Positions 1,552 to 34,827 of a stretch of DNA of 64,000 nt are shown one piece after another; within the stretch, counting starts at the first letter, position 1; each line of letters begins with the position of its first letter. A model generated the notes under the pieces. The model did not search any database. It was not told the origin of the DNA and saw only the letters and a list, made by a program, of their open reading frames with translations. A program made the translations under genes and the position numbers. Origin of the DNA: Escherichia coli. Its GTDB lineage: Bacteria > Pseudomonadota > Gammaproteobacteria > Enterobacterales > Enterobacteriaceae. The stretch lies in assembly GCF_048403405.1 (NCBI RefSeq), contig NZ_CP183129.1, one strand, 5' to 3'.

Positions 1552-1807
1552 TTACCGGTGACGCCTTAATAAATACGAGCGCACTTTAGTTAGCTCCGAT
1601 TGTATGAAGCCGCGCCATCGCTGTCCAGCGGCACGCCTTGCAGATTACGGTTTGCCACACTTTTCATCCTTCTCCTGGAGACATAATCCACACCAATCGA
1701 AAATGTTAATAAATTTGTTGCGTGAATGATCTAACAAACATGCATCATGTACAATCAGATGGAATAAATGGCGCGATAACGCTCATTTTATGACGAAGCA
1801 CACACAT

Positions 1808-1927: not shown

Positions 1928-4304
<2,377 letters not shown>

Positions 4305-4310
4305 TGTAAA

Positions 4311-4342
4311 TGCCGGATGAAGCGTTTATGCCGCATCCGGTA
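4311..4342. repeat. REP element in the glpK-glpX spacer
   Basis: tgccggatgaagcgtttatgccgcatccggta is an imperfect palindrome of the gccggatg...catccggc type. Confidence 0.75.
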
Positions 4343-4438
4343 GTCCTGAATCGTGCGGGGGCAACCCCGCACACATCAATAATCCCGCCCTTCCCCTGTG
4401 CTACACTTCGCGCCATTCCTTACTGCTTAGAGTTTGCT

Positions 4439-5449
4439 ATGAGACGAGAACTTGCCATCGAATTTTCCCGCGTCACCGAATCTGCGGCGCTGGCTGGCTA
4501 CAAATGGTTAGGACGCGGCGATAAAAACACCGCGGACGGCGCAGCGGTAAACGCCATGCGTATTATGCTCAACCAGGTCAACATTGACGGCACCATCGTT
4601 ATTGGTGAAGGTGAAATCGACGAAGCACCGATGCTCTACATTGGTGAAAAAGTCGGTACTGGTCGCGGCGACGCGGTAGATATTGCTGTTGATCCGATTG
4701 AAGGCACGCGCATGACGGCGATGGGCCAGGCTAACGCGCTGGCGGTGCTGGCAGTAGGCGATAAAGGCTGTTTCCTCAACGCGCCAGATATGTATATGGA
4801 GAAGCTGATCGTCGGACCGGGAGCCAAAGGCACCATTGATCTGAACCTGCCGCTGGCGGATAACCTGCGCAATGTAGCGGCGGCGCTCGGCAAACCGTTG
4901 AGCGAACTGACGGTAACGATTCTGGCTAAACCACGCCACGATGCCGTTATCGCTGAAATGCAGCAACTCGGCGTACGCGTATTTGCTATTCCGGATGGCG
5001 ACGTTGCGGCCTCAATTCTCACCTGTATGCCAGACAGCGAAGTTGACGTGCTGTACGGTATTGGTGGCGCGCCGGAAGGCGTGGTTTCTGCGGCGGTGAT
5101 CCGCGCATTAGATGGTGACATGAACGGTCGTCTGCTGGCGCGTCATGACGTCAAAGGCGACAACGAAGAGAATCGTCGCATTGGCGAGCAGGAGCTGGCA
5201 CGCTGCAAAGCAATGGGCATCGAAGCCGGTAAAGTATTACGTCTGGGCGATATGGCACGCAGCGATAACGTCATCTTTTCTGCCACCGGTATTACCAAAG
5301 GCGATCTGCTGGAAGGCATTAGCCGCAAAGGCAATATCGCGACTACCGAAACGCTGCTGATCCGCGGCAAGTCACGCACCATTCGCCGCATTCAGTCCAT
5401 CCACTATCTGGATCGCAAAGACCCGGAAATGCAGGTGCACATTCTCTGA
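4439..5449 (+). CDS. glpX: Class II fructose-1,6-bisphosphatase
   Basis: The protein is 336 aa (MRRELAIEFSRVTESAALAGYKWLGRGDKN...). The start was trimmed from 4310, because the longer ORF reads through the REP. Confidence 0.95.
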   Translation: MRRELAIEFSRVTESAALAGYKWLGRGDKNTADGAAVNAMRIMLNQVNIDGTIVIGEGEIDEAPMLYIGEKVGTGRGDAVDIAVDPIEGTRMTAMGQANALAVLAVGDKGCFLNAPDMYMEKLIVGPGAKGTIDLNLPLADNLRNVAAALGKPLSELTVTILAKPRHDAVIAEMQQLGVRVFAIPDGDVAASILTCMPDSEVDVLYGIGGAPEGVVSAAVIRALDGDMNGRLLARHDVKGDNEENRRIGEQELARCKAMGIEAGKVLRLGDMARSDNVIFSATGITKGDLLEGISRKGNIATTETLLIRGKSRTIRRIQSIHYLDRKDPEMQVHIL

Positions 5450-5469
5450 GTGATTTGATCGATTGAGCC

Positions 5470-5498
5470 TTCCAGTCCTTCGGGACTGGAATTTTTTT
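5470..5498 (+). terminator. Intrinsic terminator of the glpFKX operon
   Basis: The hairpin is ttccagtcc-ttcg-ggactggaa, followed by T7. Confidence 0.85.
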
Positions 5499-5545
5499 GT
5501 TCGGAGAACGAAGATAAGGCAAGTCAATCAAAACAGGAGAAAAAC

Positions 5546-6292
5546 ATGGCTGATTGGGTAACAGGCAAAGTCACTAAAGTGCAGAACTGGACCGACGCCC
5601 TGTTTAGTCTCACCGTTCACGCCCCCGTGCTTCCGTTTACCGCCGGGCAATTCACCAAGCTTGGCCTTGAAATTGACGGCGAACGCGTCCAGCGCGCCTA
5701 CTCCTATGTTAACTCGCCCGATAATCCGGATCTGGAGTTTTACCTGGTCACCGTCCCCGATGGCAAATTAAGCCCGCGACTGGCGGCACTGAAACCGGGC
5801 GATGAAGTGCAGGTGGTTAGCGAAGCCGCTGGCTTCTTTGTTCTGGATGAAGTACCAGATTGCGAAACGCTATGGATGCTGGCAACCGGTACAGCGATTG
5901 GCCCTTATTTATCGATTCTGCAACTGGGCAAAGATTTAGATCGCTTCAAAAATCTGGTCCTGGTTCACGCCGCACGTTATGCCGCCGACTTAAGCTATTT
6001 GCCACTGATGCAAGAACTGGAAAAACGCTACGAAGGCAAACTGCGCATTCAGACGGTGGTCAGTCGGGAAACGTCGGCGGGATCGCTCACCGGGCGGATA
6101 CCGGCGTTAATTGAAAGTGGTGAACTGGAAAGCGCGGTTGGCCTGCCGATGAATAAAGAAACCAGCCATGTGATGCTGTGCGGCAATCCACAGATGGTGC
6201 GCGATACGCAACAGTTACTGAAAGAGACCCGGCAGATGACGAAACATTTACGTCGCCGACCGGGCCATATGACAGCGGAGCATTACTGGTAA
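5546..6292 (+). CDS. fpr: Ferredoxin/flavodoxin-NADP+ reductase
   Basis: The 248-aa protein (MADWVTGKVTKVQNWTDALFSLTVHAP...) has the RAYSYVN FAD-binding motif. Confidence 0.95.
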   Translation: MADWVTGKVTKVQNWTDALFSLTVHAPVLPFTAGQFTKLGLEIDGERVQRAYSYVNSPDNPDLEFYLVTVPDGKLSPRLAALKPGDEVQVVSEAAGFFVLDEVPDCETLWMLATGTAIGPYLSILQLGKDLDRFKNLVLVHAARYAADLSYLPLMQELEKRYEGKLRIQTVVSRETSAGSLTGRIPALIESGELESAVGLPMNKETSHVMLCGNPQMVRDTQQLLKETRQMTKHLRRRPGHMTAEHYW

Positions 6293-6296
6293 GCGG

Positions 6297-6725
6297 TTAC
6301 TTATCGATAAACGGCACGATGAGCAAATCCGCACTCAACTTATTGATCATCCCGCGATATGCCGGCATCAAACGGTTGATAAATGAGTGGTGATGACCAC
6401 AGACAAGGAGGTCGCACTGCTCTTTTTGCATAATTTCCAGCAGTGTTTCCGGCATTTCTCCGCGTTCAATACGCAGTTTTGTCTTCGGCCATTGAATATT
6501 TTTCGTCAGTTTATACAGCTTGTTATCCGACTTATTCTTCAACAATTGAAGAATATCTTCTGTTGCAGGGAAGTAGATACCCGGATACAACTCGCTTAAG
6601 CCATCATCAATATGAATTAACGTCAGGTGAGCGTCATTATGTCTGGCGAGCTCCAGGGCTTTATTCACCAGTAAGGCATCTTCTTCATTCCCGGAAATTG
6701 CCACGCCAATGTGTTTATAAGCCAT
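6297..6725 (-). CDS. uspD: Universal stress protein D
   Basis: The 142-aa Usp-fold protein begins [27 protein letters not shown]... It is convergent with fpr. Confidence 0.93.
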
Positions 6726-6751
6726 GTTTAACTCCTTCTAAAGCAACTCCA

Positions 6752-7051
6752 TCAAGCTAACGAACGCAGTGATAACTCAAAAATAATCATCTCGGCCTGG
6801 CATGAGAAGGTGAAGGCCGCATCAAGCTCAACTTGCCCTTCCAGATCCTTAATCTTATAGGCCACGCTGGCCCCTTCATCTGCAGAGGATGCAGCGGCGG
6901 CAAGCTCTTTCAGTTTGGTCATAAAGGACTCTGCTTCTTCGCGGGTGGCAAAAAAACGCGAAAACTTACTGGTACAGTTGTCGTTATCAATCACCGTACC
7001 GATATCAATCGCACATCCTTTAGTACTGCATTTATCTACGACATCTTTCAT
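6752..7051 (-). CDS. yiiS: UPF0381/DUF406 family protein YiiS
   Basis: The 99-aa protein ([30 protein letters not shown]...) sits in the syntenic position. Confidence 0.88.
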
Positions 7052-7262
7052 AGGGCACCTCTGTATATTCGCCTCTCTGTCGATTACGACTTAAGAATAA
7101 TGCGCCGTTAAGGGAAGAACAAACAAGTAATGATCTTATGGATTACCATTTTTTTTGATATTGCTTAAGGTGAAGAGTTCAGAAGGATTTTCCGGGCATT
7201 GTCATTTGCATCGTGGAAATAACAATCCCGGAAAAAAATAGCAGTAAGAGATATATTAAAGG

Positions 7263-7703
7263 TTAATTACTTGATTTATTGTCGGCTTTATACTTCACAT
7301 CCTGGGTATCTTTACCATATTTATTTTCGCCTTGTGTGCCAACAAACGCACCAAGATCGATAAGCATCATCACCAGAATCAACGTCGGGACAAAACGCCC
7401 TACCGCCCATTGCCAGACACCCGGTAAAATCGCCCAGTTACCCGCCAGTAGCATCCACGCCACAATCATCAGAAATGCCCATGCGCCGGAACGCCCGCGA
7501 TCATGCAAGCGCTTAACGGTTACTGCCGCTGTTGGCCAGAGCAAGCACACAAGGCAAAACGCCGCAGTCTGAATATCGAGTAAATTTTTACCCGCCAGTG
7601 AGAAAAGCACCAGCATGCCTGCGAACCACAGGCCTATCCAAATCCAGAAATCACGGCGTCCAATACGCCCTTTAAATGAGAATAACCATTGCTGTATGGT
7701 CAT
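7263..7703 (-). CDS. yiiR: DUF805 inner-membrane protein YiiR
   Basis: The protein is 146 aa with the DUF805 opening FSFKGRIGRRDFW and several hydrophobic spans. Confidence 0.88.
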   Translation of the reverse strand: MTIQQWLFSFKGRIGRRDFWIWIGLWFAGMLVLFSLAGKNLLDIQTAAFCLVCLLWPTAAVTVKRLHDRGRSGAWAFLMIVAWMLLAGNWAILPGVWQWAVGRFVPTLILVMMLIDLGAFVGTQGENKYGKDTQDVKYKADNKSSN

Positions 7704-7803
7704 GTAAGTTCCTTGATGGTTGTCTTTTCCAGGATTCTACCCTTTTGACAAGGGCGACAGATATCGTTTTAATCGGAGCCAGTCATAACAAAAGGTACTG
7801 TCA

Positions 7804-8403
7804 ATGAAGCCAGGGTGTACGCTGTTTTTTCTCTTATGTTCTGCATTAACCGTTACAACAACGGCGCATGCACAAACACCAGATACGGCAACGACCGCGC
7901 CTTATCTGCTGGCTGGAGCCCCTACTTTCGATCTCTCCATCAGCCAGTTTCGAGAAGACTTTAACAGCCAGAATCCCAGCCTGCCACTGAACGAATTTCG
8001 TGCCATCGACAGCAGTCCCGACAAAGCCAATCTCACTCGTGCTGCAAGTAAAATTAATGAGAACTTGTATGCTTCTACAGCGCTGGAGCGCGGTACCTTA
8101 AAAATCAAAAGCATTCAAATGACCTGGCTACCCATCCAGGGGCCAGAGCAAAAAGCCGCGAAAGCGAAAGCTCAGGAATACATGGCAGCGGTGATCCGCA
8201 CACTCACCCCATTAATGACCAAAACACAAAGCCAGAAAAAACTGCAGTCGCTACTAACGGCGGGGAAAAACAAACGTTATTACACCGAGACCGAAGGTGC
8301 ACTGCGTTATGTTGTCGCGGACAACGGCGAAAAGGGGCTGACCTTCGCTGTTGAACCGATTAAGCTGGCGCTATCTGAATCGCTTGAAGGTTTGAATAAA
8401 TGA
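7804..8403 (+). CDS. yiiQ: DUF1454 periplasmic protein YiiQ
   Basis: The 199-aa protein has an N-terminal signal peptide (MKPGCTLFFLLCSALTVTTTAHA). Confidence 0.88.
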   Translation: MKPGCTLFFLLCSALTVTTTAHAQTPDTATTAPYLLAGAPTFDLSISQFREDFNSQNPSLPLNEFRAIDSSPDKANLTRAASKINENLYASTALERGTLKIKSIQMTWLPIQGPEQKAAKAKAQEYMAAVIRTLTPLMTKTQSQKKLQSLLTAGKNKRYYTETEGALRYVVADNGEKGLTFAVEPIKLALSESLEGLNK

Positions 8404-8510
8404 CAAAAAGCAAAGCCTTTGTGCCGATGAATCTCTATACTGTTTCACAGACCTGCTGCCCTGCGGGGCGGCCATCTTCCTTTATTCGCTTATAAGCGTG
8501 GAGAATTAAA

Positions 8511-9278
8511 ATGCGACATCCTTTAGTGATGGGTAACTGGAAACTGAACGGCAGCCGCCACATGGTTCACGAGCTGGTTTCTAACCTGCGTAAAGAGCTG
8601 GCAGGTGTTGCTGGCTGTGCGGTTGCAATCGCACCACCGGAAATGTACATCGATATGGCGAAGCGTGAAGCTGAAGGCAGCCACATCATGCTGGGTGCGC
8701 AAAACGTGGACCTGAACCTGTCCGGCGCATTCACCGGTGAAACCTCTGCTGCTATGCTGAAAGACATCGGCGCACAGTACATCATCATCGGCCACTCTGA
8801 ACGTCGTACTTACCACAAAGAGTCTGACGAACTGATCGCGAAAAAATTCGCGGTGCTGAAAGAGCAGGGTCTGACTCCGGTTCTGTGCATCGGTGAAACC
8901 GAAGCTGAAAACGAAGCGGGCAAAACTGAAGAAGTTTGTGCACGTCAGATCGACGCGGTACTGAAAACTCAGGGTGCTGCAGCATTCGAAGGTGCGGTAA
9001 TCGCTTACGAACCAGTATGGGCAATCGGTACTGGCAAATCTGCAACTCCGGCGCAGGCACAGGTTGTTCACAAATTCATCCGTGACCACATCGCTAAAGT
9101 TGACGCTAACATCGCTGAACAAGTGATCATCCAGTACGGCGGCTCTGTAAACGCGTCTAACGCTGCAGAACTGTTTGCTCAGCCAGACATCGACGGCGCG
9201 CTGGTTGGCGGTGCTTCTCTGAAAGCTGACGCTTTCGCAGTGATCGTTAAAGCTGCAGAAGCGGCTAAACAGGCTTAA
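8511..9278 (+). CDS. tpiA: Triosephosphate isomerase
   Basis: The 255-aa protein ([19 protein letters not shown]...) has the IGHSERR and [11 protein letters not shown] motifs. Confidence 0.98.
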
Positions 9279-9287
9279 GTCTGACAG

Positions 9288-9310
9288 GTGCCGGATTTCA
9301 TATCCGGCAC
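9288..9310. terminator. Hairpin between convergent tpiA and cdh (probable terminator)
   Basis: The hairpin is gtgccggat-ttcat-atccggcac. The flanking T-runs are weak. Confidence 0.55.
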
Positions 9311-9332
9311 TTACTTTCCTTAACTCCTCGCC

Positions 9333-10088
9333 TTAACGCAAAATCTCACACTGATGATCCTGAATTTCCTCGGCTGAAGCACGGTTAAGCGTCAGTAGAT
9401 TTCGTTGTGTCGCCAGCAATACAAATGAGTTATCACTCTGCCGTACCATCGCCAGCCCGTAGCTTCCCATATGTTCCCGCGCCTCAGGTACTTCTTCTGC
9501 CAGCATCATAAATGGACTGCGTTGTACCAGTTCGCTTTCCGTTACCCGACGCGCCAGGTATTCATGCCCGCGCAAACCACCTGGCAGTGGCAACCAGCGG
9601 CTGCTGATGTTCGCCAGATTGTTATCCAGCTGTTCGCGCACATCAGGACGAATACAAGAGATATGAATATGAAAATGGTTTTGCGTACGCCCGGTGCGGG
9701 AGTTGATCGCCAAAGAAACCGCGCGATCGGGAACCGGCTGGCCGTATTTTTTGCTCATAAAATCACGCGCCTGCCAGGCCAACCAAAAGAAGTTCGGCGT
9801 TGAAGGATCGGTCAACAAAGGACTTTCAGTACCGTTAATACGATACGTTGGCATCAACAGATATTGCAGTGGGCCATTAAGATCTTTTAAAACCACGTAT
9901 CCGGCATTGGGTTTGACTTCCGCACATGGCGAAGGATTTTGATTTTGCTGTTGATTGGGCAAACATTCCTCAAGGACAATCTTACGTAATGTATCCGACT
10001 CTTCACCGGTTAATTTCCAGTAACCAATACCGGCAGCCACAACGGCGATAACTATCATCACCAAAAAAAGAAGACCCGCTTTTTTCAT
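9333..10088 (-). CDS. cdh: CDP-diacylglycerol pyrophosphatase
   Basis: The 251-aa protein begins [26 protein letters not shown]. The 315-aa ORF-track version extends into sbp and was rejected. Confidence 0.92.
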
Positions 10089-10194
10089 CTTTTTTTCCCT
10101 GTACCTCAAAGAGATGCAAGGGTAACGCAAAATCGTGACAAATAAAAAACCCGGTCGCGAGAAACCACCGGGTTTGATAATTATCCTGGGGAAA

Positions 10195-11184
10195 TCAGCG
10201 TTTGCTGATCTGATCGAACGTACCGCCGTTAGCAAAATGCTCTTTTTGCGCTTTCGTCCAGCCGCCGAACTCTTCATCAATGGTGAATAACTTCAATTTT
10301 GGAAACGCATTTTCGTACTTTTTCGCTACCTCAGCGTCGCGCGGACGGTAGTAGTTTTTCGCGGCAATTTCCTGACCTTCTGGCGAGTAGAGATATTTCA
10401 GATAGGCTTCCGCCACCTCTTTGGTGCCTTTTTTCTCGACCACTTTATCGACCACCGACACGGTTGGCTCTGCGAGGATAGACTCACTCGGCGTAACGAT
10501 TTCGAATTTATCTTTCCCCAGTTCATTCGCTGCCAGCAGAGCTTCGTTTTCCCAGGCGATCAGTACATCGCCAATTCCGCGCTCGACAAAAGTGTTAGTG
10601 GAGCCGCGCGCGCCAGAATCCAGAACTTCGACGTTTTTATACAGTGCCCGAACAAAATCCTGTGCTTTTGCCTGATCGTTGTTGTTGTGATGCAGCGCGT
10701 AGCCCCAGGCTGCCAGGTAGTTCCAGCGCGCGCCACCAGAGCTTTTCGGATTAGGCGTGATCACCGAAACACCCGGTTTAATCAGATCGTTCCAGTCATG
10801 GATCTGCTTCGGATTGCCCTTACGCACCAGGAAAACAATGGTGGAAGTGTACGGTGCGGAGTTATCCGGCAGACGTTTGATCCACTCTTTATCAATCCGC
10901 CCGCGTTCCGCAATCGCGTCCACGTCATAGGCCAGAGCCAGAGTGACAACATCAGCTTCAATACCATTGATTACCGACGTCGCTTGTTTGCCTGAACCAC
11001 CGTGTGACTGACGAATCACCACGTTATCGCCAGTTTGCTGTTTCCAGTGGGCGCTGAATGCCTTGTTGTACTGTTCGTACAATTCGCGCGTTGGATCATA
11101 TGAAACGTTAAGAAGCTGAATATCCTTTGCCATAACGCTGGTTGCCGCCAGCAAAAATGTTAACCCTACGCCCCACTTGTTCAT
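10195..11184 (-). CDS. sbp: Periplasmic sulfate-binding protein
   Basis: The 329-aa protein ([36 protein letters not shown]...) carries a signal peptide. Confidence 0.95.
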
Positions 11185-11347
11185 CGCCCGACTCTCTTAT
11201 GTTGTGTTGTGATGAGCAAAGCGTGCCAGAAGGTTAACCAAACATTAAAGAATAAAAAAAGATTGGCTATAACTTGCGGGTATATGTTGAGGGATTAAAA
11301 AGGCGGAAGAAATCCGCCTCATATTGCTGACAAAGTGCGCTTTATCG

Positions 11348-11449
11348 ATGCCGGATGCGGCGCGAACGCCTTATCAGGCCTACAAAAGTTTGCAAATTCA
11401 ATAAATTGCAGAATTCACGTAGGCCTGATAAGCGAAGCGCATCAGGCAT
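11348..11449. repeat. BIME: two inverted REP units
   Basis: The two units are atgccggatgcggcgcgaacgccttatcaggcctac and gtaggcctgataagcgaagcgcatcaggcat, in opposite orientation. Confidence 0.85.
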
Positions 11450-11503
11450 TTTTGCTTCTGTCATCGGTTTCAGGCTAAAGGAATCTGCCTTTTTCCGAAA
11501 TCA

Positions 11504-12466
11504 TTAATACAGTTTTTTCGCGCAGTCCAGCCAGTCGCCTTTGAACGGACGCTTCATGTTTTCGATAGCGTCGATGATGTCGTGGTGAACCAGCTGTTCG
11601 TTCTGGATACCTACGCAACGACCGCCGTAACCTGCCAGCAGCAGATCGATAGCGTAAGCGCCCATACGGGAAGCCAGAATACGGTCGTAAGGCACCGGAG
11701 AACCACCGCGCTGGATGTGGCCCAGCACAGTTGCGCGGGTTTCACGACCGGTTTCTTTCTCGATGAAATGCGCCAGTTCGTCAACATCACACATATGTTC
11801 GGTAATCGCCACGATCGCGTGTTTTTTACCTTTCGCGATACCCGCTTTGATTTCGTTTACCAGGTCTTCACGGCTGAATTCAACTTCCGGAACTACAACG
11901 AATTCACAGCCACCGGCAATGGCCGCAGCCAGGGTCAGATCGCCACAATAACGACCCATCACTTCCACCACGGAAATACGCTGGTGAGAAGAAGAGGTAT
12001 CACGCAGACGGTCGATCGCTTCTACAACGGTGCTCAGCGCAGTGAAGAAACCGATAGTGTAGTCAGTGCCTTTGATGTCGTTGTCGATAGTGCCAGGCAG
12101 ACCGATGCACGGGAAGCCCATTTCGGTCAGACGCATTGCACCCATGTAGGAACCGTCACCGCCGATAACCACCAGCGCGTCGATACCACGTTTTTTCAGG
12201 TTTTCGATAGCCACGGCGCGGATGTTCTCGTCGCGGAATTCCGGGAAACGCGCAGAACCGAGGAACGTACCACCACGGTTGATCATGTCAGACACGCTGT
12301 AACGGTCTAGCTGTACCATACGGTCTTCATACAGACCCAGATAGCCGTCATAAATGCCCATTACTTCCAGACCTTCTGTCAGCGCAGAACGAACAACCCC
12401 GCGAATTGCGGCGTTCATGCCTGGCGCATCACCGCCGCTTGTCAACACACCGATTTTCTTAATCAT
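11504..12466 (-). CDS. pfkA: 6-phosphofructokinase I
   Basis: The 320-aa protein begins [26 protein letters not shown]. It was trimmed from ORF start 12562. Confidence 0.97.
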
Positions 12467-12646
12467 GACTACCTCTGAACTTTGGAATGCAAAATGAAAT
12501 CTGTTGCCGGAAGTCTTCTTGCACATCGAAGTGATCCAACGAATGTGCAAATAGTATAACAATCACTTCCTGCTGAATTGATTCAGGTCAGGCCAAATGG
12601 CGGTATTTTATACACAAAATGCGGGTCTGGCTCTCTTTTATACTGA

Positions 12647-13549
12647 TTATGAAAGCATAGACCGTTTACCCTCCCTGGGTACGACGGAACAGGGGTCCTG
12701 ATGGATAATCACATCCGATCCCGGAAAACGCCGTAAAATAGCCTGCTCTACCTGATCCGCCACCATATGTGCCTGAACCAAAGGCAGAGAGTCTTCCATT
12801 TCCAAATGAATCTGAATAAAGCGGGTCGGCCCTGACTGCCGCGTGCGAAGATCGTGAGCGCCGCTAACACCCGGCCAGGAAGTCACGATATCAATAATTT
12901 CTTGCCGTTCTTCATCAGGCAATGCGCGATCCAGTAATGACTGTACCGCCTCATATCCCATGCGTAACGCGCTATATAAAATATAGATGCCGATTCCCAA
13001 TGCAAACAGAGCATCGGCGCGATGCCAGCCATACCAGGACAACCCCAGCGCCAGCAGAATTGCGCCGTTCATCATAACATCAGACTGGTAATGTAGCATA
13101 TCAGCCCGCACCGCCTGGCTTTGCGTCCGGCGCACCACCCACCGCTGAAACGAGACAAGGATAATCGTACAAATTAGCGCCACAATTGTCACGATAACCC
13201 CGACGCCTGGATCTGTCATCGGTGTTGGAGATACCAGATGTTGAATACCCGTCAAAAAGAGGAATAGTGCCGAACCGGAGATAAACATACTTTGCGCCAG
13301 CGCCGCGAGGGACTCAGCTTTACCGTGACCAAACGAGTGATTATCGTCGGCAGGTTGCAGGGAATATCGCACCACCAGTAAATTCGTCAACGACGCGCCG
13401 ATATCCACCAGCGAATCCACCAGCGCGGCGAGAATACTCACCGACCCGGTATACCACCATGCAAAAATTTTAATCAGCAATAGCAGCGAAGCCATCGCCG
13501 TCGCAGCAATCGCCGCCCGACTGACCAGCCGTCCATAAGATTGATTCAT
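12647..13549 (-). CDS. fieF: Cation diffusion facilitator (Fe/Zn efflux) FieF/YiiP
   Basis: The 300-aa CDF-family protein begins [36 protein letters not shown]. Confidence 0.95.
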
Positions 13550-13630
13550 AAATACTCCCGCTATCAACTGACGCTAGTATAACGGAAGCAAATCATCTGC
13601 AATGCATTAAGCAGCAGGCAAATTGAGGAT

Positions 13631-13692
13631 AAAAAAAACCCCCACATCATGTGGGGGAAGACAGGGATGGTGTCTATGGCAAGGAAAACAGG
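13631..13692 (-). ncRNA. cpxQ: CpxQ-type 3'UTR-derived sRNA plus the cpxP intrinsic terminator
   Basis: The segment lies directly after the cpxP stop. Its minus-strand sequence is ...uuuuccuugccauagacaccaucccugucuu-cccccac-augau-guggggg-U8. CpxQ is known to be processed from the cpxP 3'UTR. The 5' end given here is approximate. Confidence 0.6.
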
Positions 13693-13697
13693 GTTTA

Positions 13698-14198
13698 CTA
13701 CTGGGAACGTGAGTTGCTACTACTCAATAGCTTCAACGATGAACTTTTTTGCCATTGCGTCACGTCGCGCAACTGCTCCATTCGTTGTTGATGTTTCTCG
13801 TTTAAAACCGCTTGCTGCTCCGGCGTTAACAGGCGATACATTTGGTTGCGGACTTTTGCCATCTCAACCTGACGAGCAATTTGCTCATTCGCCATTTTTT
13901 CTGCCTGCGCGCGCACAGCGTTTTCATCAAAATTTTCTGCGGTGACAAGGCGATGCATTGTCTCCAGTTCGCTAACATTAACAGGAGGCTGTTCGTGCCG
14001 GGCCTGTTGCATAAGATCTCGCATCTGCTGACGCTGATGTTCGGTTAAACTTATGCCGTCGAACATATGGCTCTGCGTACTGCGCTGCGTAAGTTCTTCA
14101 CCCGGATGCCAGTTATCGCCTGAACCGACTTCAGCAGCGTGGCTTAATGAACTGACTGCCAGCGTTGAGGCCATGACGGCAGCGGTAACTATGCGCAT
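13698..14198 (-). CDS. cpxP: Periplasmic Cpx pathway inhibitor/adaptor CpxP
   Basis: The 166-aa protein begins [36 protein letters not shown]. It is divergent from cpxRA. Confidence 0.95.
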
Positions 14199-26343: not shown

Positions 26344-27168
26344 ATGCAAAACATTACCCAGTCCTGGTTTGTCCAGGGAATGATCAAAGCCACCACCGAC
26401 GCCTGGCTGAAAGGCTGGGACGAGCGCAATGGTGGTAACCTGACGCTGCGCCTGGATGACGCCGATATCGCGCCTTATCACGGCAACTTTCATGCACAAC
26501 CGCGCTATATCCCGCTCAGCCAGCCCATGCCTTTACTGGCAAATACACCGTTTATTGTCACCGGCTCCGGCAAATTCTTCCGCAACGTCCAGCTTGATCC
26601 TGCGGCTAACTTAGGCGTCGTAAAAGTCGACAGCGACGGCGCGGGCTACCACATTCTCTGGGGGCTAACTCACGAAGCCGTTCCAACCTCTGAACTTCCG
26701 GCGCACTTCCTCTCTCATTGCGAACGCATTAAAGCCACCAACGGTAAAGATCGGGTGATCATGCACTGCCATGCCACCAACCTGATCGCCCTTACCTACG
26801 TACTGGAAAACGACACCGCGGTCTTCACTCGCCAACTGTGGGAAGGCAGCACCGAATGTCTGGTAGTGTTCCCGGATGGCGTCGGCATTTTGCCGTGGAT
26901 GGTGCCCGGCACCGACGAAATCGGCCAGGCGACCGCACAGGAAATGCAAAAACATTCGCTGGTGTTGTGGCCCTTCCACGGCGTCTTCGGCAGCGGTCCG
27001 ACACTGGATGAAACATTCGGTTTAATCGACACCGCAGAAAAATCAGCACAAGTATTAGTGAAGGCTTATTCGATGGGCGGCATGAAACAGACCATCAGCC
27101 GTGAAGAGCTGATAGCGCTCGGCCAGCGTTTCGGCGTTACACCACTCGCCAGTGCGCTGGCGCTGTAA
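26344..27168 (+). CDS. rhaD: Rhamnulose-1-phosphate aldolase
   Basis: The 274-aa protein begins [37 protein letters not shown]-track start 26251 reads through the REPs and was rejected. Confidence 0.95.
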
Positions 27169-27177
27169 GGAGCAAAC

Positions 27178-27492
27178 ATGATCCGCAAAGCCTTTGTCAT
27201 GCAGGTTAACCCCGACGCCCACGAAGAGTATCAGCGTCGGCATAATCCAATCTGGCCGGAACTGGAAGCAGTGTTGAAATCTCACGGTGCGCATAACTAC
27301 GCCATTTACCTCGACAAAGCGCGTAATCTGCTATTTGCCACAGTAGAGATTGAATCTGAAGAACGGTGGAATGCGGTAGCCAGTACTGATGTTTGCCAAC
27401 GTTGGTGGAAATATATGACCGACGTTATGCCAGCTAACCCGGATAACAGCCCAGTCAGTAGCGAGCTGCAAGACGTGTTTTACCTGCCTTAA
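27178..27492 (+). CDS. rhaM: L-rhamnose mutarotase
   Basis: The protein is 104 aa and begins [41 protein letters not shown]. Confidence 0.93.
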
Positions 27493-27532
27493 TGAGTTGC
27501 GGTGCCGGAAAATATCCAGCACCGCGCCTTCA

Positions 27533-28927
27533 TCAGAAGAAGTATTTAAAGCGAACGCGTGCCCCGTAACGGTCATCAGTATCATCACCGTGTTTTTTAT
27601 CACCGTCGCTATCCAGAATGGAGTAATACGTCCCGAGGTAAATATTAAAGTTCTCCATATCCATCACATTAGCGAACTGATAAGACGCATGAATGGTATG
27701 AATGGTGTACGTCCCTTCATCATCAATCCAGCAGTCGTTATCACAAACTACACCGCTGAATTCATCAATCTTATTGTGCGCGTAGATATAACCGAGCTCG
27801 AAACGTTTCCACAGCGCGTTAATCCCGGCAGTGAAATCTTTCTCATTATTAGCATCTAAATAGGCGGTATTAAGATTAACCACGACGCCATTTTCCGGAT
27901 CCGTTTTCAGGCCATTCCAGGTCATGCTCATACCATAGCCGGTACGATCGGACTGATCGACAAAATTACCCTTGCTATCGGTATAACCATAAGCATTATT
28001 TACCACGTTCGCTTCCATCGCTGCGGAAACGGTGAATTCTTCTGTCGGCGACCAGGCAATTACCGGACGCAGATAAGCAACATTTTTCTGCTGCTCCATA
28101 TCGCGTCCATGATAATTACCGTCATTATATAAAGATGTTCCGTCTTCAAGTAACGTGTTTAATTCAAAATACCAGTTATCGAGTTGTTTGCTGACGAGGA
28201 AATTACCGCCAGCGTTAGAGCGCCCGCGGCCCTCTTTCATCATATAGATATAACCGCTGCCATCGTCATAAAGATCGTTCGCAGTATTACCGGAATGTTC
28301 AACAAAGGTATCCTGATTCAGCGGGAACATATCATAGGCTTCGAAACGACCGACTTTGACCTTCCAGTCATTCTCTTTCCCAAAGAAGAATACCGCGTCA
28401 TCAATATTCACTGAACCGTGCATATCCCCCAGCGGTTGTGCGGAGAACCCGGCGAAATAACCATTATCCAGTTTTCGCATACCATCAAAACCTAACAGAA
28501 TACGACCATTGAGATTCCACTGTTCATTAGTGGGATCGCTATTCACATCAGCGTTGGTCATTGCCAGCAGGCCATGATTACTTTCTGCATCCATATTAAA
28601 TTCTACGTCGCCGTAGATTTTTAAATCGCCATAACCTGAGAGCAAAAGATTAGGTGAGGTGGAATTTTTCTTTGCAGATTCCGCCGTTGCCTGTCCATTT
28701 ACCGGCGTATTGCCCTGGGCAGCCTTAATTTCGCGGATCTCAGCGGCTTGTTGTGTCTGCAGCTGTTTAACCTGGCTCTCTGCTTTTGCTGCCCGCATTT
28801 CTGCCGCTTCCAGGCGTTCTTCCAGCAATGCCATGCGTTGTTCCAGCGTTAAATGCTGTGTTTTTGCCATTCCGGTACTACATGCCAATAATAAACCGAT
28901 GGCTAAAGATAATGTCGATTTTTTCAT
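27533..28927 (-). CDS. Accessory outer-membrane glycoporin-like protein (sugar-porin type with an N-terminal coiled-coil extension; RafY/ScrY/OprB-like, family not verified)
   Basis: The 464-aa protein has a signal peptide (MKKSTLSLAIGLLLACSTGMA|KT). A heptad-like stretch follows (LTLEQRMALLEERLEAAEMRAAKAESQVKQLQ). The remainder has alternating aromatic/polar beta-strand character and ends with the OMP terminus RVRFKYFF. The gene is AT-rich (about 38% GC in sampled lines). Confidence 0.7.
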   Translation of the reverse strand: MKKSTLSLAIGLLLACSTGMAKTQHLTLEQRMALLEERLEAAEMRAAKAESQVKQLQTQQAAEIREIKAAQGNTPVNGQATAESAKKNSTSPNLLLSGYGDLKIYGDVEFNMDAESNHGLLAMTNADVNSDPTNEQWNLNGRILLGFDGMRKLDNGYFAGFSAQPLGDMHGSVNIDDAVFFFGKENDWKVKVGRFEAYDMFPLNQDTFVEHSGNTANDLYDDGSGYIYMMKEGRGRSNAGGNFLVSKQLDNWYFELNTLLEDGTSLYNDGNYHGRDMEQQKNVAYLRPVIAWSPTEEFTVSAAMEANVVNNAYGYTDSKGNFVDQSDRTGYGMSMTWNGLKTDPENGVVVNLNTAYLDANNEKDFTAGINALWKRFELGYIYAHNKIDEFSGVVCDNDCWIDDEGTYTIHTIHASYQFANVMDMENFNIYLGTYYSILDSDGDKKHGDDTDDRYGARVRFKYFF

Positions 28928-29403
28928 TATTTACGTTCCCTGAAATAAAAGAGACCCTACGCTTTCCAAAAGGAATACGTATATAGAGAAATATAAGGTG
29001 TGCACTTTCGAATTTTTAATCCAACTTCAGCAGGCCGATGGATAGTATCCCGCTGCATAATATGAGTAAATCCGCTGATTTCCTGGAACGTGAGGAATAT
29101 AACAATAGTGCCGTTTTTAACCAAATATCGTAAAAAATATTAGATATAATTCACGCTGACTCATAAGCCACAAATATAAATAACCTTGCTGCAAAACATG
29201 TGCGGCAGTTAAACATTCACAACATCATTAAATAATGATTTTTTATTCACTGCATTTATTTTTCCCATCAATATGTGCCTTACACCGCAAAATTTATCCT
29301 TCACTCTGCCTTATATTGTCACGACTTCACGACATATCCGCGCTCATCACAAAACCGCCCCGCCGTTACAATTAACTATAATATTTTTTCATGGAGTCCA
29401 ATA

Positions 29404-29850
29404 ATGGCAGCACTTACTGCAAGCTGTATTGACCTGAATATTCAGGGCAATGGCGCTTATTCCGTTCTGAAGCAGTTGGCGACAATGGCGTTACAAAACG
29501 GTTTTATCACCGACTCACACCAGTTCCTGCAAACCCTGCTGCTGCGCGAAAAAATGCACTCCACCGGTTTTGGTTCCGGCATCGCCGTGCCGCACGGTAA
29601 AAGCGCCTGCGTTAAACAACCGTTCGTGTTATTCGCCCGCAAAGCGCAGGCCATTGACTGGAAAGCCAGCGACGGCGAAGACGTCAATTGCTGGATCTGC
29701 CTCGGCGTGCCGCAAAGTGGCGAAGAGGATCAGGTCAAAATCATCGGCACACTGTGTCGCAAAATTATCCACCAGGATTTTATCAACCAACTGCGACAGG
29801 GCGACGCCGACCAGGTGCTTGCTTTGTTAAATCAAACCCTCAGCTCATAA
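29404..29850 (+). CDS. frvA: PTS fructose-like EIIA component
   Basis: The 148-aa protein (MAALTASCIDLNIQGNGAYSVLKQLA...) has the PTS EIIA type-2 His region GSGIAVPHGKS. It was trimmed from ORF start 29275. Confidence 0.9.
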   Translation: MAALTASCIDLNIQGNGAYSVLKQLATMALQNGFITDSHQFLQTLLLREKMHSTGFGSGIAVPHGKSACVKQPFVLFARKAQAIDWKASDGEDVNCWICLGVPQSGEEDQVKIIGTLCRKIIHQDFINQLRQGDADQVLALLNQTLSS

Positions 29851-29860
29851 GGAAGTGGCG

Positions 29861-31312
29861 ATGGAGTCATCCTTACGTATTGTCGCGATCACCAACTGCC
29901 CCGCCGGGATCGCTCACACCTACATGGTGGCGGAAGCCCTGGAACAGAAAGCCCGTTCTCTCGGTCATACCATTAAAGTTGAAACTCAAGGATCAAGCGG
30001 CGTCGAAAACCGCTTATCCAGCGAAGAGATTGCCGCTGCCGATTACGTGATTTTCGCCACCGGGCGTGGCCTGAGCGGTGACGATCGCGCGCGATTTGCC
30101 GGGAAAATGGTTTATGAGATTGCCATCTCCCAGGCGCTGAAAAATATCGACCAGATTTTCAGTGAATTACCGACAAACTCACAACTTTTTGCCGCAGATA
30201 GCGGCGTGAAGCTCGGCAAACAGGAAGTGCAAAGTGGCAGCGTAATGAGCCATCTGATGGCGGGTGTCTCTGCGGCGCTGCCGTTTGTCATCGGTGGCGG
30301 TATCCTGGTGGCGCTTGCCAACATGCTGGTGCAGTTCGGTTTGCCGTATACCGATATGTCGAAAGGCGCGCCGTCGTTTACCTGGGTGGTTGAATCCATC
30401 GGTTATCTCGGCTTCACCTTTATGATCCCCATCATGGGCGCTTATATTGCCTCGTCGATTGCCGATAAACCCGCTTTCGCTCCGGCGTTTCTGGTTTGCT
30501 ATCTGGCGAATGACAAAGCCCTGCTCGGCACCCAGTCTGGCGCGGGCTTCCTCGGCGCGGTGGTGCTGGGGCTGGCGATTGGCTATTTCGTCTTCTGGTT
30601 CCGTAAAGTGCGCCTTGGCAAAGCATTACAACCGCTGCTCGGTTCCATGCTGATCCCGTTCGTCACTCTGCTGGTTTTCGGCGTACTGACTTACTACGTT
30701 ATCGGACCGGTGATGTCCGACCTCATGGGCGGGTTGCTGCACTTCCTGAACACCATTCCTCCGTCAATGAAGTTTGCGGCAGCGTTTTTGGTCGGTGCGA
30801 TGCTGGCGTTCGATATGGGCGGCCCTATCAATAAAACCGCCTGGTTCTTCTGCTTCTCACTGCTGGAAAAACACATTTACGACTGGTACGCCATCGTCGG
30901 CGTTGTCGCGCTGATGCCGCCTGTCGCGGCGGGTCTTGCGACGTTCATTGCGCCCAAACTGTTTACCCGACAGGAAAAAGAGGCTGCCAGTAGTGCCATT
31001 GTGGTCGGTGCCACAGTCGCAACCGAACCGGCTATTCCTTACGCTCTGGCAGCTCCGTTGCCGATGATTACCGCCAATACGCTGGCGGGCGGTATTACCG
31101 GCGTGCTGGTGATCGCTTTCGGAATCAAACGTCTGGCGCCAGGTTTGGGTATCTTTGACCCGCTGATCGGCCTGATGTCGCCGGTGGGTTCGTTTTATCT
31201 GGTGCTGGCGATTGGCCTCGCGCTGAACATTTCATTCATTATCGTCCTGAAAGGATTATGGTTACGCCGCAAAGCGAAAGCCGCGCAACAGGAGCTTGTC
31301 CATGAACATTGA
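29861..31312 (+). CDS. frvB: PTS fructose-like EIIBC component
   Basis: The protein is about 483 aa (MESSLRIVAITNCPAGIAHTYMVAEALE...), with an EIIB Cys followed by a polytopic EIIC domain. An alternative start lies at 29855. Confidence 0.9.
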   Translation: MESSLRIVAITNCPAGIAHTYMVAEALEQKARSLGHTIKVETQGSSGVENRLSSEEIAAADYVIFATGRGLSGDDRARFAGKMVYEIAISQALKNIDQIFSELPTNSQLFAADSGVKLGKQEVQSGSVMSHLMAGVSAALPFVIGGGILVALANMLVQFGLPYTDMSKGAPSFTWVVESIGYLGFTFMIPIMGAYIASSIADKPAFAPAFLVCYLANDKALLGTQSGAGFLGAVVLGLAIGYFVFWFRKVRLGKALQPLLGSMLIPFVTLLVFGVLTYYVIGPVMSDLMGGLLHFLNTIPPSMKFAAAFLVGAMLAFDMGGPINKTAWFFCFSLLEKHIYDWYAIVGVVALMPPVAAGLATFIAPKLFTRQEKEAASSAIVVGATVATEPAIPYALAAPLPMITANTLAGGITGVLVIAFGIKRLAPGLGIFDPLIGLMSPVGSFYLVLAIGLALNISFIIVLKGLWLRRKAKAAQQELVHEH

Positions 31313-34148: not shown

Positions 34149-34194
34149 TGCATTTATCACCAAAATCAAAAATGTTTAACGCAGGCTGTTATAG

Positions 34195-34827
34195 TCATCG
34201 ACCATTTCGTTGTACTCGCATAATGCTCTCGGGAAATGAGTCGTCGACCATCCAGCTTGTGTTTGCATCCTGAAGTTGCTCTTTATCCCAGTCAGAGTAC
34301 GGAACTTTATCTCTGACGCGGCGAACATATTTTTTAGCCTCGAGTTGATACTGGTCTGCCGAATTAATGAACGAGAAATTCATACCGCCTTTATCCGCTT
34401 CTTTGGCCTGCGTCACCAGCGTTTTCAGTTCAGAGACTTTCTTCATTGCCGCATCAACATCAAACTTCTCTTGCGAAATCAGGTTATTAATTTGTTTCGC
34501 TGAAATCATGACTGCCAGAGAGTAGTAGTGGAATGTTTTCCCTTCTCTTTGTTCAATATTTTTCAGTTCCGCAAGCTGGCGCTTATCGTTAATTTCCTGA
34601 ATCGCCGCATGATAAGATTCTGCTACAGGTTCAAAGGCTTCAAGATTTTTTAAGAATGTCTGGTGCAGCGTTTTCCCTTTCGCAAACGCATCGTCTTTAT
34701 AATTTTCCTGGGTGTAATATTTATCCATTTCGTTAATGGTATTACCCAACGCCACGGCAGCATAAATATAACTTACCGCCACGCCATCAATAGGTTGCAG
34801 CGCAGGCGTTAACGCCACTACACGCAT
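34195..34827 (-). pseudogene. yiiG: yiiG (DUF3829 lipoprotein family), apparently 5'-truncated
   Basis: The ORF is 210-220 codons and lacks any signal peptide or lipobox. Similarity to YiiG begins at ..VALTPALQPIDGVAVSYI.. The full-length K-12 protein is recalled as about 351 aa. Only about 40 nt of AT-rich filler separates this ORF from the fdhD terminator. Confidence 0.55.

Follow-up and report, generated by a model that had tools for sequence, protein, structure and literature searches.

Introduction

RafY, the outer membrane porin known from Escherichia coli raffinose plasmids of the pRSD2 type, is the closest described counterpart of the gene analyzed here, a minus-strand open reading frame (ORF) encoding 464 amino acids that is located between rhaM and frvA in a 64,000-nucleotide stretch of an E. 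coli chromosome (contig NZ_CP183129.1; the whole stretch is referred to below as the window). Linkage to raffinose genes is typical of the RafY family but is no part of its definition. Plasmid RafY is reported to let cells grow faster when the sugar is maltose, sucrose, or raffinose (Ulmke 1997), and a bilayer study of the protein presents it in its title as a general diffusion pore. A homologue in Salmonella is reported to be induced by lactulose, the Klebsiella RafY has been tried as a vaccine antigen, and a genome-wide association study found that many E. coli strains have rafY without rafABD. In an O157:H7 genome comparison published in 2016, rafRABD was found to be missing, yet "a rafY homolog annotated as rafY2" was mentioned (PMC4809568). 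In Klebsiella pneumoniae, mutation of a LacI-type repressor leads to a situation in which GlyP, also a RafY-family porin, alone restores the fitness of OmpK35/36-deficient cells in a gut community (bioRxiv 10.64898/2026.03.29.715108). Once expressed, GlyP provides an alternative wide channel that offsets the loss of the major porins.

Some features of the window protein recall other porins. ScrY has a periplasmic N-terminal extension forming a coiled coil, which the predicted heptad helix of the window protein resembles, and a role in oligosaccharide uptake, as in ScrY and LamB (TC 1.B.3), may be shared by analogy. The barrels of ScrY and LamB consist of 18 strands and contain a greasy slide. 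In 16-stranded porins, the channel is constricted by loop 3, which connects strands 5 and 6. In DcaP of Acinetobacter baumannii (6eus), the trimer is held together by an N-terminal coiled coil located in the periplasm, and the protein carries, as reported, dicarboxylates rather than sugars; it belongs to another family and is only 10% identical to the window protein.

Family assignment of the porin

Comparison with the Pfam profiles assigned the protein to PF16966 (Porin_8, "Porin-like glycoporin RafY") with an E value of 3e-154 and a score of 513.9 bits, versus a cutoff of 25. The match spans residues 104 to 464 of the protein and the entire profile (positions 1 to 372 of 372). In the same scan, LamB (PF02264) was not matched at E ≤ 1, and no match was obtained for OprB (PF04966) or for the general-porin profiles Porin_1 and Porin_4. 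Among the families put forward in a preliminary description of the locus, RafY was therefore recovered, whereas OprB and LamB were not. A scan of NCBIfam did not reveal any family-level match, the only hit being a chance match to a coiled coil.

Conjugative E. coli plasmids encode a 464-residue porin that is 77 to 79% identical to the window protein over the full length, the plasmid RafY used for comparison being that of NZ_CP078136.1 and not that of pRSD2 itself. The plasmid gene is located directly after genes for a LacI-family repressor, an alpha-galactosidase, a major facilitator superfamily permease, a GH32 hydrolase, and a kinase, i.e., the raf operon is followed by rafY. The two proteins have in common a full-length PF16966 domain, a signal peptide, a coiled-coil extension, a barrel, and a C terminus ending in RFKYFF. 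Among the chromosomal copies compared, that of Escherichia is the nearest to plasmid RafY (77 to 78% identity versus 58 to 72% for the others). The agreement in size with RafY noted in the preliminary description thus reflects real homology, and its proposal of a glycoporin-like outer membrane protein is supported by the profile match and the plasmid comparison. Membership in the RafY family is established at the level of the sequence, and the best overall explanation is that the gene is very probably an orthologue, located on the Escherichia chromosome, within the RafY outer membrane porin family (TC 1.B.15).

Neither the gene nor its annotation is new. Positions 27100 to 29900 of the window are 100% identical to the sequence of strain TUM14771, in which the RefSeq annotation of the product is "carbohydrate porin" (WP_000749944.1), the family is a recognized one, and the name rafY2 appears in the literature. 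It is an uncharacterized chromosomal orphan of a known family, ordinary rather than new.

The predicted organization of the protein (Table 1) corresponds to that initially described, with a Sec-like cleavable N terminus recognizable by inspection, a heptad stretch of ~45 residues, and a barrel-like C-terminal region that models as a barrel. By inspection, the protein terminates in RVRFKYFF, the last residue being aromatic (Phe). At the position equivalent to the predicted signal peptide cleavage site, orthologues display FA|KT without Cys. A lipoprotein reading of the LLACS motif was considered and ruled out; the N terminus is not a lipobox, since the Cys is not conserved among the orthologues. 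The N-terminal extension was predicted as a single helix (residues 28 to 70) in the full-length AlphaFold2 (AF2) model, and residues ~27 to 70 follow the heptad a/d pattern L-M-L-L-A-A-A-V-L. Residues 27 to 54 gave a match to PF11471 (Sugarporin_N, the periplasmic N-terminal extension of maltoporins) of 15.3 bits, below the cutoff of 25.7; for many RafY-family homologues, precomputed Pfam annotation includes the same domain. The heptad helix and this subthreshold match are consistent with the ScrY-like extension proposed earlier.

The GC content of the gene is 44.9%, that of the spacer separating it from frvA is 35.9%, and those of the rha and frv genes are 55.0% and 52.5%, respectively, placing the porin gene 7 to 10 points below its flanking genes. 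The earlier estimate of about 38% GC is accurate for the spacer only (36 to 38%) and not for the gene. The AT-rich divergent spacer was found as described, with a length of 476 bp instead of 475 bp.

Predicted fold of the protein

A PDB sequence search retrieved no relative of the porin with a solved structure. The full-length AF2 model was weak, with a predicted local distance difference test (pLDDT) value of 62.9. A model restricted to the barrel and built on an alignment of 79 sequences reached a pLDDT of 78.2 and a predicted template modeling (pTM) score of 0.78. It comprises 16 long strands and one short additional hairpin, and strands 5 and 6 are joined by a long loop that is partly helical. 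This loop (residues ~195 to 240) is partly helical and of low confidence in both AF2 models, and it contains the densest run of invariant residues of the family (columns R194 to R236).

In the comparison with known barrels, the 16-stranded porins OprP (score of 24.1), PorB (23.1), Omp-Pst1 (23.0), VhChiP (22.8), Omp32 (22.8), DcaP (22.7), and OprB (19.6) were all placed above the 18-stranded ScrY (18.5) and maltoporin (18.4). Foldseek was in agreement, also ranking the 16-stranded porins above the 18-stranded ones, and in a survey based on TCDB the RafY family was predicted to have 16 strands (PMC4827864). A long loop joining strands 5 and 6 also occurs in the trimeric 16-stranded porins OprP, PorB, OmpF/OmpC/Omp-Pst1, VhChiP, and OprB. 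Unlike the window protein, most of these porins lack an added coiled-coil extension, sequence identity with them is only 8 to 14%, and their Porin_1, Porin_4, and OprB profiles are not matched. With respect to ScrY and LamB, there is no match at the level of the sequence family and the modeled number of long strands is 16. The barrel therefore looks 16-stranded and general-porin-like in the models, combined with a predicted ScrY-like coiled coil in a protein that is no member of the LamB/ScrY family. A LamB/ScrY type of barrel fits the models less well.

Distribution of the gene in E. coli

The presence of the gene was surveyed in 5426 complete E. coli genomes, carriers being defined by the presence of at least 80% of the gene. 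The porin was carried by 2557 genomes (47%), and the K-12-type rhaM-frvA junction of 300 bp, devoid of the porin, was found in 2814, the two states accounting together for 99% of the genomes. The gene is thus strain variable, as anticipated in the preliminary description. Carriers include O157:H7, B2 extraintestinal strains, and BL21 derivatives. The layout of the window, rhaM-porin-frvABXR, was present in 1378 genomes. In a second, B2-type layout, the porin is kept, frvABXR is deleted, and a truncated yiiG precedes fdhD; this seems to concern ~1180 genomes (2557 minus 1378). In strain Ecol_656, which exemplifies this layout (locus L003, positions 8434 to 11657), frvABXR was lost as a block and the truncated yiiG (DUF3829) pseudogene directly follows the porin gene; further matches with a coverage of 77% include O2:H6 and O6:K2:H1 strains.

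In K-12, the region between rhaM and frvA (locus L002, positions 3394 to 3693) contains 300 bp and no gene, in agreement with the preliminary description. The 134 bp adjoining frvA match the porin haplotype at only 76%, versus 93 to 100% for the flanking genes, and the first ~165 bp have no match in the window or in any other locus compared. Since this first portion is unique to the K-12 junction, no simple deletion scar can be reconstructed. The divergence suggests either two old haplotypes or a replacement by recombination. No mobile-element scar was found at the porin junctions.

Disruptions of the gene were also encountered. In strain HS30-1 (locus L085, positions 1788 to 2577), IS1A adjoins a 75-bp remnant of the 3' end of the porin gene, both frvABXR and yiiG being absent. 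In strain EC09, the porin gene is split in two by IS1. Insertion of IS1 in this gene has occurred more than once.

Conservation of the position in other genera

A scan across bacteria, based on one genome per species, revealed porin genes convergent to rhaM, with 65 to 85% identity, in Kluyvera, Citrobacter, Klebsiella, Raoultella, Pseudocitrobacter, Scandinavium, Trabulsiella, Superficieibacter, and Pseudescherichia. Copies that are 98 to 99% identical to the window copy were found in Escherichia ruysiae, where the gene is convergent to rhaM, and in another Escherichia species. The position is therefore common to at least 10 enterobacterial genera. In every genus checked, the GC content of the porin gene is 2 to 10 points (mostly 5 to 10) below that of its flanks, and it climbs with the GC content of the host, from 45% to 54%. 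Within Escherichia, the ratio of nonsynonymous to synonymous substitutions (dN/dS) is 0.024 to 0.042, a range pointing to strong purifying selection on the intact gene. Divergence at synonymous sites (dS) between the Escherichia chromosomal copy and the plasmid copy is 0.83, indicating that the chromosomal gene is not a recent copy of the plasmid gene.

The shared position convergent to rhaM, the family-wide GC deficit, and the low dN/dS together indicate that the gene is ancestral at this site, where it has been kept by selection, and that it was lost in the K-12-type half of E. coli. The preliminary description had regarded the gene as inserted between the rha and frv operons; this reading is not supported, the absence in K-12 corresponding to a loss.

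Neighboring genes

The porin gene is carried by the strand opposite to the rha genes, with a gap of 40 bp between the convergent stop codons. An inverted repeat fills most of this gap (Table 1), although the terminator scan did not call it. In K-12, a different hairpin followed by a T-run is found after rhaM.

In most other genera, a gene encoding a regulator with an XRE-type helix-turn-helix and a cupin domain (XRE regulator) is located upstream of the porin gene on the same strand, followed beyond by divergent azlC-azlD and by frvRXBA. This block, with azlD-azlC on the minus strand and the XRE regulator gene on the plus strand, separates frvA from the porin gene in ~37 loci (for example, locus L016, positions 6004 to 7640), and the regulator is 84 to 97% identical between genera. 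The block is absent from E. coli genomes, except for an unlinked XRE homologue in 3 genomes, and the window contains no remnant of azlC, azlD, the XRE regulator gene, rafA, or rafB. Because homologues of rafA, rafB, and rafD are likewise missing from the window, the linkage to raffinose genes seen on plasmids does not exist there. In contrast to the plasmid gene, the window copy is chromosomal and stands alone, without adjacent rafRABD. It also differs in this respect from glyP, which belongs to an operon comprising genes for a LacI-type repressor (GlyR), a permease, a hydrolase, and the porin, whereas no repressor gene adjoins the porin gene in E. coli. GlyP itself corresponds to a paralogue group of ~60% identity (loci L082 and L084) and is not the rhaM-linked orthologue. 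The E. coli porin is thus an orphan, since the raf, azl, and XRE genes are all missing beside it.

In Klebsiella and Raoultella, lacI-rafA-rafB is found directly upstream of the rhaM-linked porin gene (Klebsiella sp. R390, locus L017, positions 2969 to 9386), and in some Enterobacter rafA-rafB is directly downstream (loci L022 and L040, positions 8001 to 14100). It appears that alpha-galactoside genes came to lie next to the rhaM-linked porin twice, independently. As the commonest layout across genera is the stand-alone porin after the azlDC-XRE block, rafAB looks like a later insertion rather than an ancestral partner.

Upstream region

The Shine-Dalgarno-like sequence, the leader stem-loop, the candidate promoters, and a CRP-like 16-mer are listed in Table 1. 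A hairpin comparable to that of the window, ending 24 to 32 nucleotides (nt) before the ATG, was found in at least 35 of 46 distinct leaders. The position of the hairpin is conserved, and its stem sequences are unrelated between genera. The mean folding energy of the leaders was -8.2 kcal/mol versus -3.3 kcal/mol in shuffles, the calculation having been made per sequence against mononucleotide shuffles, with no formal covariation test. Owing to the lack of common sequence in the stems, RNAalifold detected no consensus structure when 29 leaders were aligned with MAFFT, and a search of Rfam with positions 27400 to 29500 at a permissive threshold gave no match. In Scandinavium-type loci, a T-run directly follows the hairpin, as in an intrinsic terminator; 8 to 10 nt intervene in E. 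coli. The hairpin could act as a 5'-terminal stabilizer if transcription starts at the proximal TATA-rich site, and it could equally be an attenuator or a module for small RNAs and Hfq.

The 16-mer is found in the form TGTTAYMTYSCTCACG in most loci of other genera, within spacers that are otherwise poorly alignable. Its pattern has 2 matches in the window versus 0.16 expected, the other exact match (positions 1721 to 1736, minus strand) being probably due to chance. The box is a candidate binding site for CRP, although another regulator is just as possible since the second G of TGTGA is missing. The elements of the putative distal promoter, TTTAC at 18 nt downstream of the 16-mer and TAnTAT ~17 nt further, have a conserved spacing to the 16-mer across genera. 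If this promoter is correctly placed, the CRP-like box would be centered near position -61.5, as in class I CRP-dependent promoters. TATA-rich elements are present 5 to 12 nt before the hairpin in most genera, and with initiation at the proximal promoter the mRNA would begin with the hairpin. The consensus scan returned 3 promoter sites in the region, fewer than in shuffles (mean of 6.0). Silencing by H-NS, as suggested previously, is plausible in view of the 36% GC content of the spacer. The leader of plasmid rafY differs from the window in containing neither the 16-mer nor the hairpin. The conserved CRP-like box and the leader hairpin are the only parts of the locus for which no description was found in the literature searched.

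Table 1. Position and strand of the features identified in and around the porin gene
Feature	Position	Strand	Remark
RafY-family porin coding sequence, 464 aa	27533..28927	-	ATG start; stop codon 27533-27535; ORF list
Signal peptide, residues 1-21 (MKKSTLSLAIGLLLACSTGMA), predicted cut before KTQ	28865..28927	-	By inspection
Periplasmic N-terminal coiled-coil extension, residues ~26-70	28718..28852	-	AF2 helix, heptads, weak PF11471 match
Beta-barrel domain, residues ~98-464, 16 long predicted strands, C-terminal Phe	27536..28636	-	
Loop between strands 5 and 6, residues ~195-240	28208..28345	-	Candidate L3-type constriction loop; low model confidence
Divergent AT-rich spacer between porin gene and frvA, 476 bp, 35.9% GC	28928..29403		frvA start at 29404
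Shine-Dalgarno-like AGGGAA, 8 nt before ATG	28936..28941	-	Inside T-rich block (TTTATTTCAAGGAA) conserved across genera
Leader stem-loop TACGTATTCC-TTTT-GGAAAGCGTA, 9 bp, 3' end 30 nt before ATG	28958..28981	-	
Candidate proximal promoter, TTAAAA, 18 nt, TATATT	28990..29019	-	Consensus scan; inferred
Candidate distal promoter, TTTACT (29070-29065), 17 nt, TACTAT (29047-29042)	29042..29070	-	Inferred placement
Conserved 16-mer TGTTATATTCCTCACG, CRP-like	29089..29104	-	8/10 positions of TGTGA-N6-TCACA; center 169 nt before ATG
Inverted repeat GCGGTGC-N13-GCACCGC, filling most of the rhaM/porin gap	27499..27525		Read from alignment

Proposed function and alternative explanations

By analogy with its relatives, the protein would be exported by the Sec pathway and, after removal of the signal peptide, its C-terminal ~367 residues would fold into a 16-stranded barrel, with the conserved loop between strands 5 and 6 folded inside the barrel and the N-terminal heptad helix (~45 residues) projecting on the periplasmic side, where it would probably form a coiled coil within a trimer. 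Such a channel would allow the passive passage of di- to tetrasaccharides (raffinose family, sucrose, and maltose) and of other solutes, as a wide general-diffusion pore of the kind reported for plasmid RafY rather than as a LamB-like binding slide, and the sugars would then be imported by existing inner membrane carriers (LacY, MelB, and others). A role in general oligosaccharide entry is suggested by the recurrent linkage to alpha-galactoside genes combined with the reported function of plasmid RafY. Expression would probably be driven by the gene's own promoter in the AT-rich spacer, and the CRP-like box and leader hairpin suggest catabolite and posttranscriptional control. That the locus encodes a conditionally expressed wide-channel backup porin, run by a module, undescribed in the literature searched, made of the CRP-like box and the leader hairpin, is a tentative and rather doubtful extension of these elements. 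Several points weigh against the overall proposal of a chromosomal RafY-type channel. The literature searched contained no experiment on the chromosomal copy of E. coli; the outer membrane location, trimeric state, pore size, and substrates are extrapolated from relatives that are 60 to 79% identical; there is no adjacent catabolic or regulatory partner in E. coli; the CRP-like box departs from the consensus, and the semiconserved spacer inside it would fit another regulator as well as CRP; and the gene could be silent under most conditions.

The preliminary description had proposed that the gene supplies the outer membrane step for the frvABXR phosphotransferase system or for rhamnose-containing oligosaccharides. 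The orientation of the gene, divergent to frvA and convergent to rhaM, and its ScrY-like coiled-coil N terminus would be compatible with a LamB/ScrY-type, substrate-specific glycoporin serving these systems. However, the frv genes appear to have been deleted in the ~1180 B2-type genomes that keep the porin, the azlDC-XRE block or lacI-rafAB intervenes in other genera (azlDC and the XRE regulator gene in most of them), and the porin gene shares neither strand nor operon with the rha genes. There is therefore no support for a dedicated frv or rhamnose-oligosaccharide role. As the Pfam scan is also negative for LamB and OprB, 16-stranded porins are the better structural matches, and the title of the RafY bilayer study refers to general diffusion, we consider a specific glycoporin of this kind very improbable. 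The loss of the gene in half of E. coli, IS1 insertions or truncations in some strains, and the contrast between rafA/rafB homologues directly beside the porin gene in Klebsiella, Raoultella, and some Enterobacter and their absence from the E. coli window would fit the leftover of a chromosomal raffinose cluster (lacI-rafA-rafB-porin), now functionless in E. coli and being lost. This explanation is very improbable in view of the predominance of the stand-alone layout after azlDC-XRE, the strong purifying selection within Escherichia, and the conservation of promoter-region elements in E. coli.

The base composition (44.9% for the gene and 35.9% for the spacer versus 52 to 55% for the flanks), the presence/absence polymorphism, and the existence of a close relative on conjugative plasmids could also be accounted for by a recently and horizontally inserted AT-rich islet, silenced by H-NS and making no contribution in most strains. 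We give hardly any credence to this possibility, because the position is shared by at least 10 genera, the GC deficit is a family trait tracking the GC content of the host, the plasmid copy is distant (dS of 0.83), the dN/dS (0.024 to 0.042) indicates that the gene is kept by selection, and the junctions are free of mobile-element scars.

If the chromosomal gene does encode a backup porin, its near 50:50 polymorphism could alter oligosaccharide nutrition in the gut and, by analogy with GlyP in Klebsiella, could change both the fitness cost borne by resistant strains deficient in OmpF/OmpC and their permeability to drugs. What laboratories know of E. coli porins derives largely from K-12, a lineage without this channel, whereas 47% of the complete genomes carry it. 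Relative to the preliminary description, the present analysis replaces a gain by a loss in K-12 and a tie to frv or rhamnose by none, and it adds a predicted fold that is 16-stranded and general-porin-like.

Other observations in the window

Downstream of frvR, yiiG (window positions 34176 to 34818) carries in the near-identical strain TUM14771 the annotation of a pseudogene with a frameshift and a truncated N terminus. In the region of positions ~42586 to 44400, fabY (yiiD) and yiiE are separated in TUM14771 by a gene for a transposase and a hypothetical gene that is truncated, and the window differs from the TUM14771 record by 1 base in this region. A second accessory sugar-linked porin gene, ompL, is located at positions 58893 to 59585, where the yih sulfoquinovose cluster ends.

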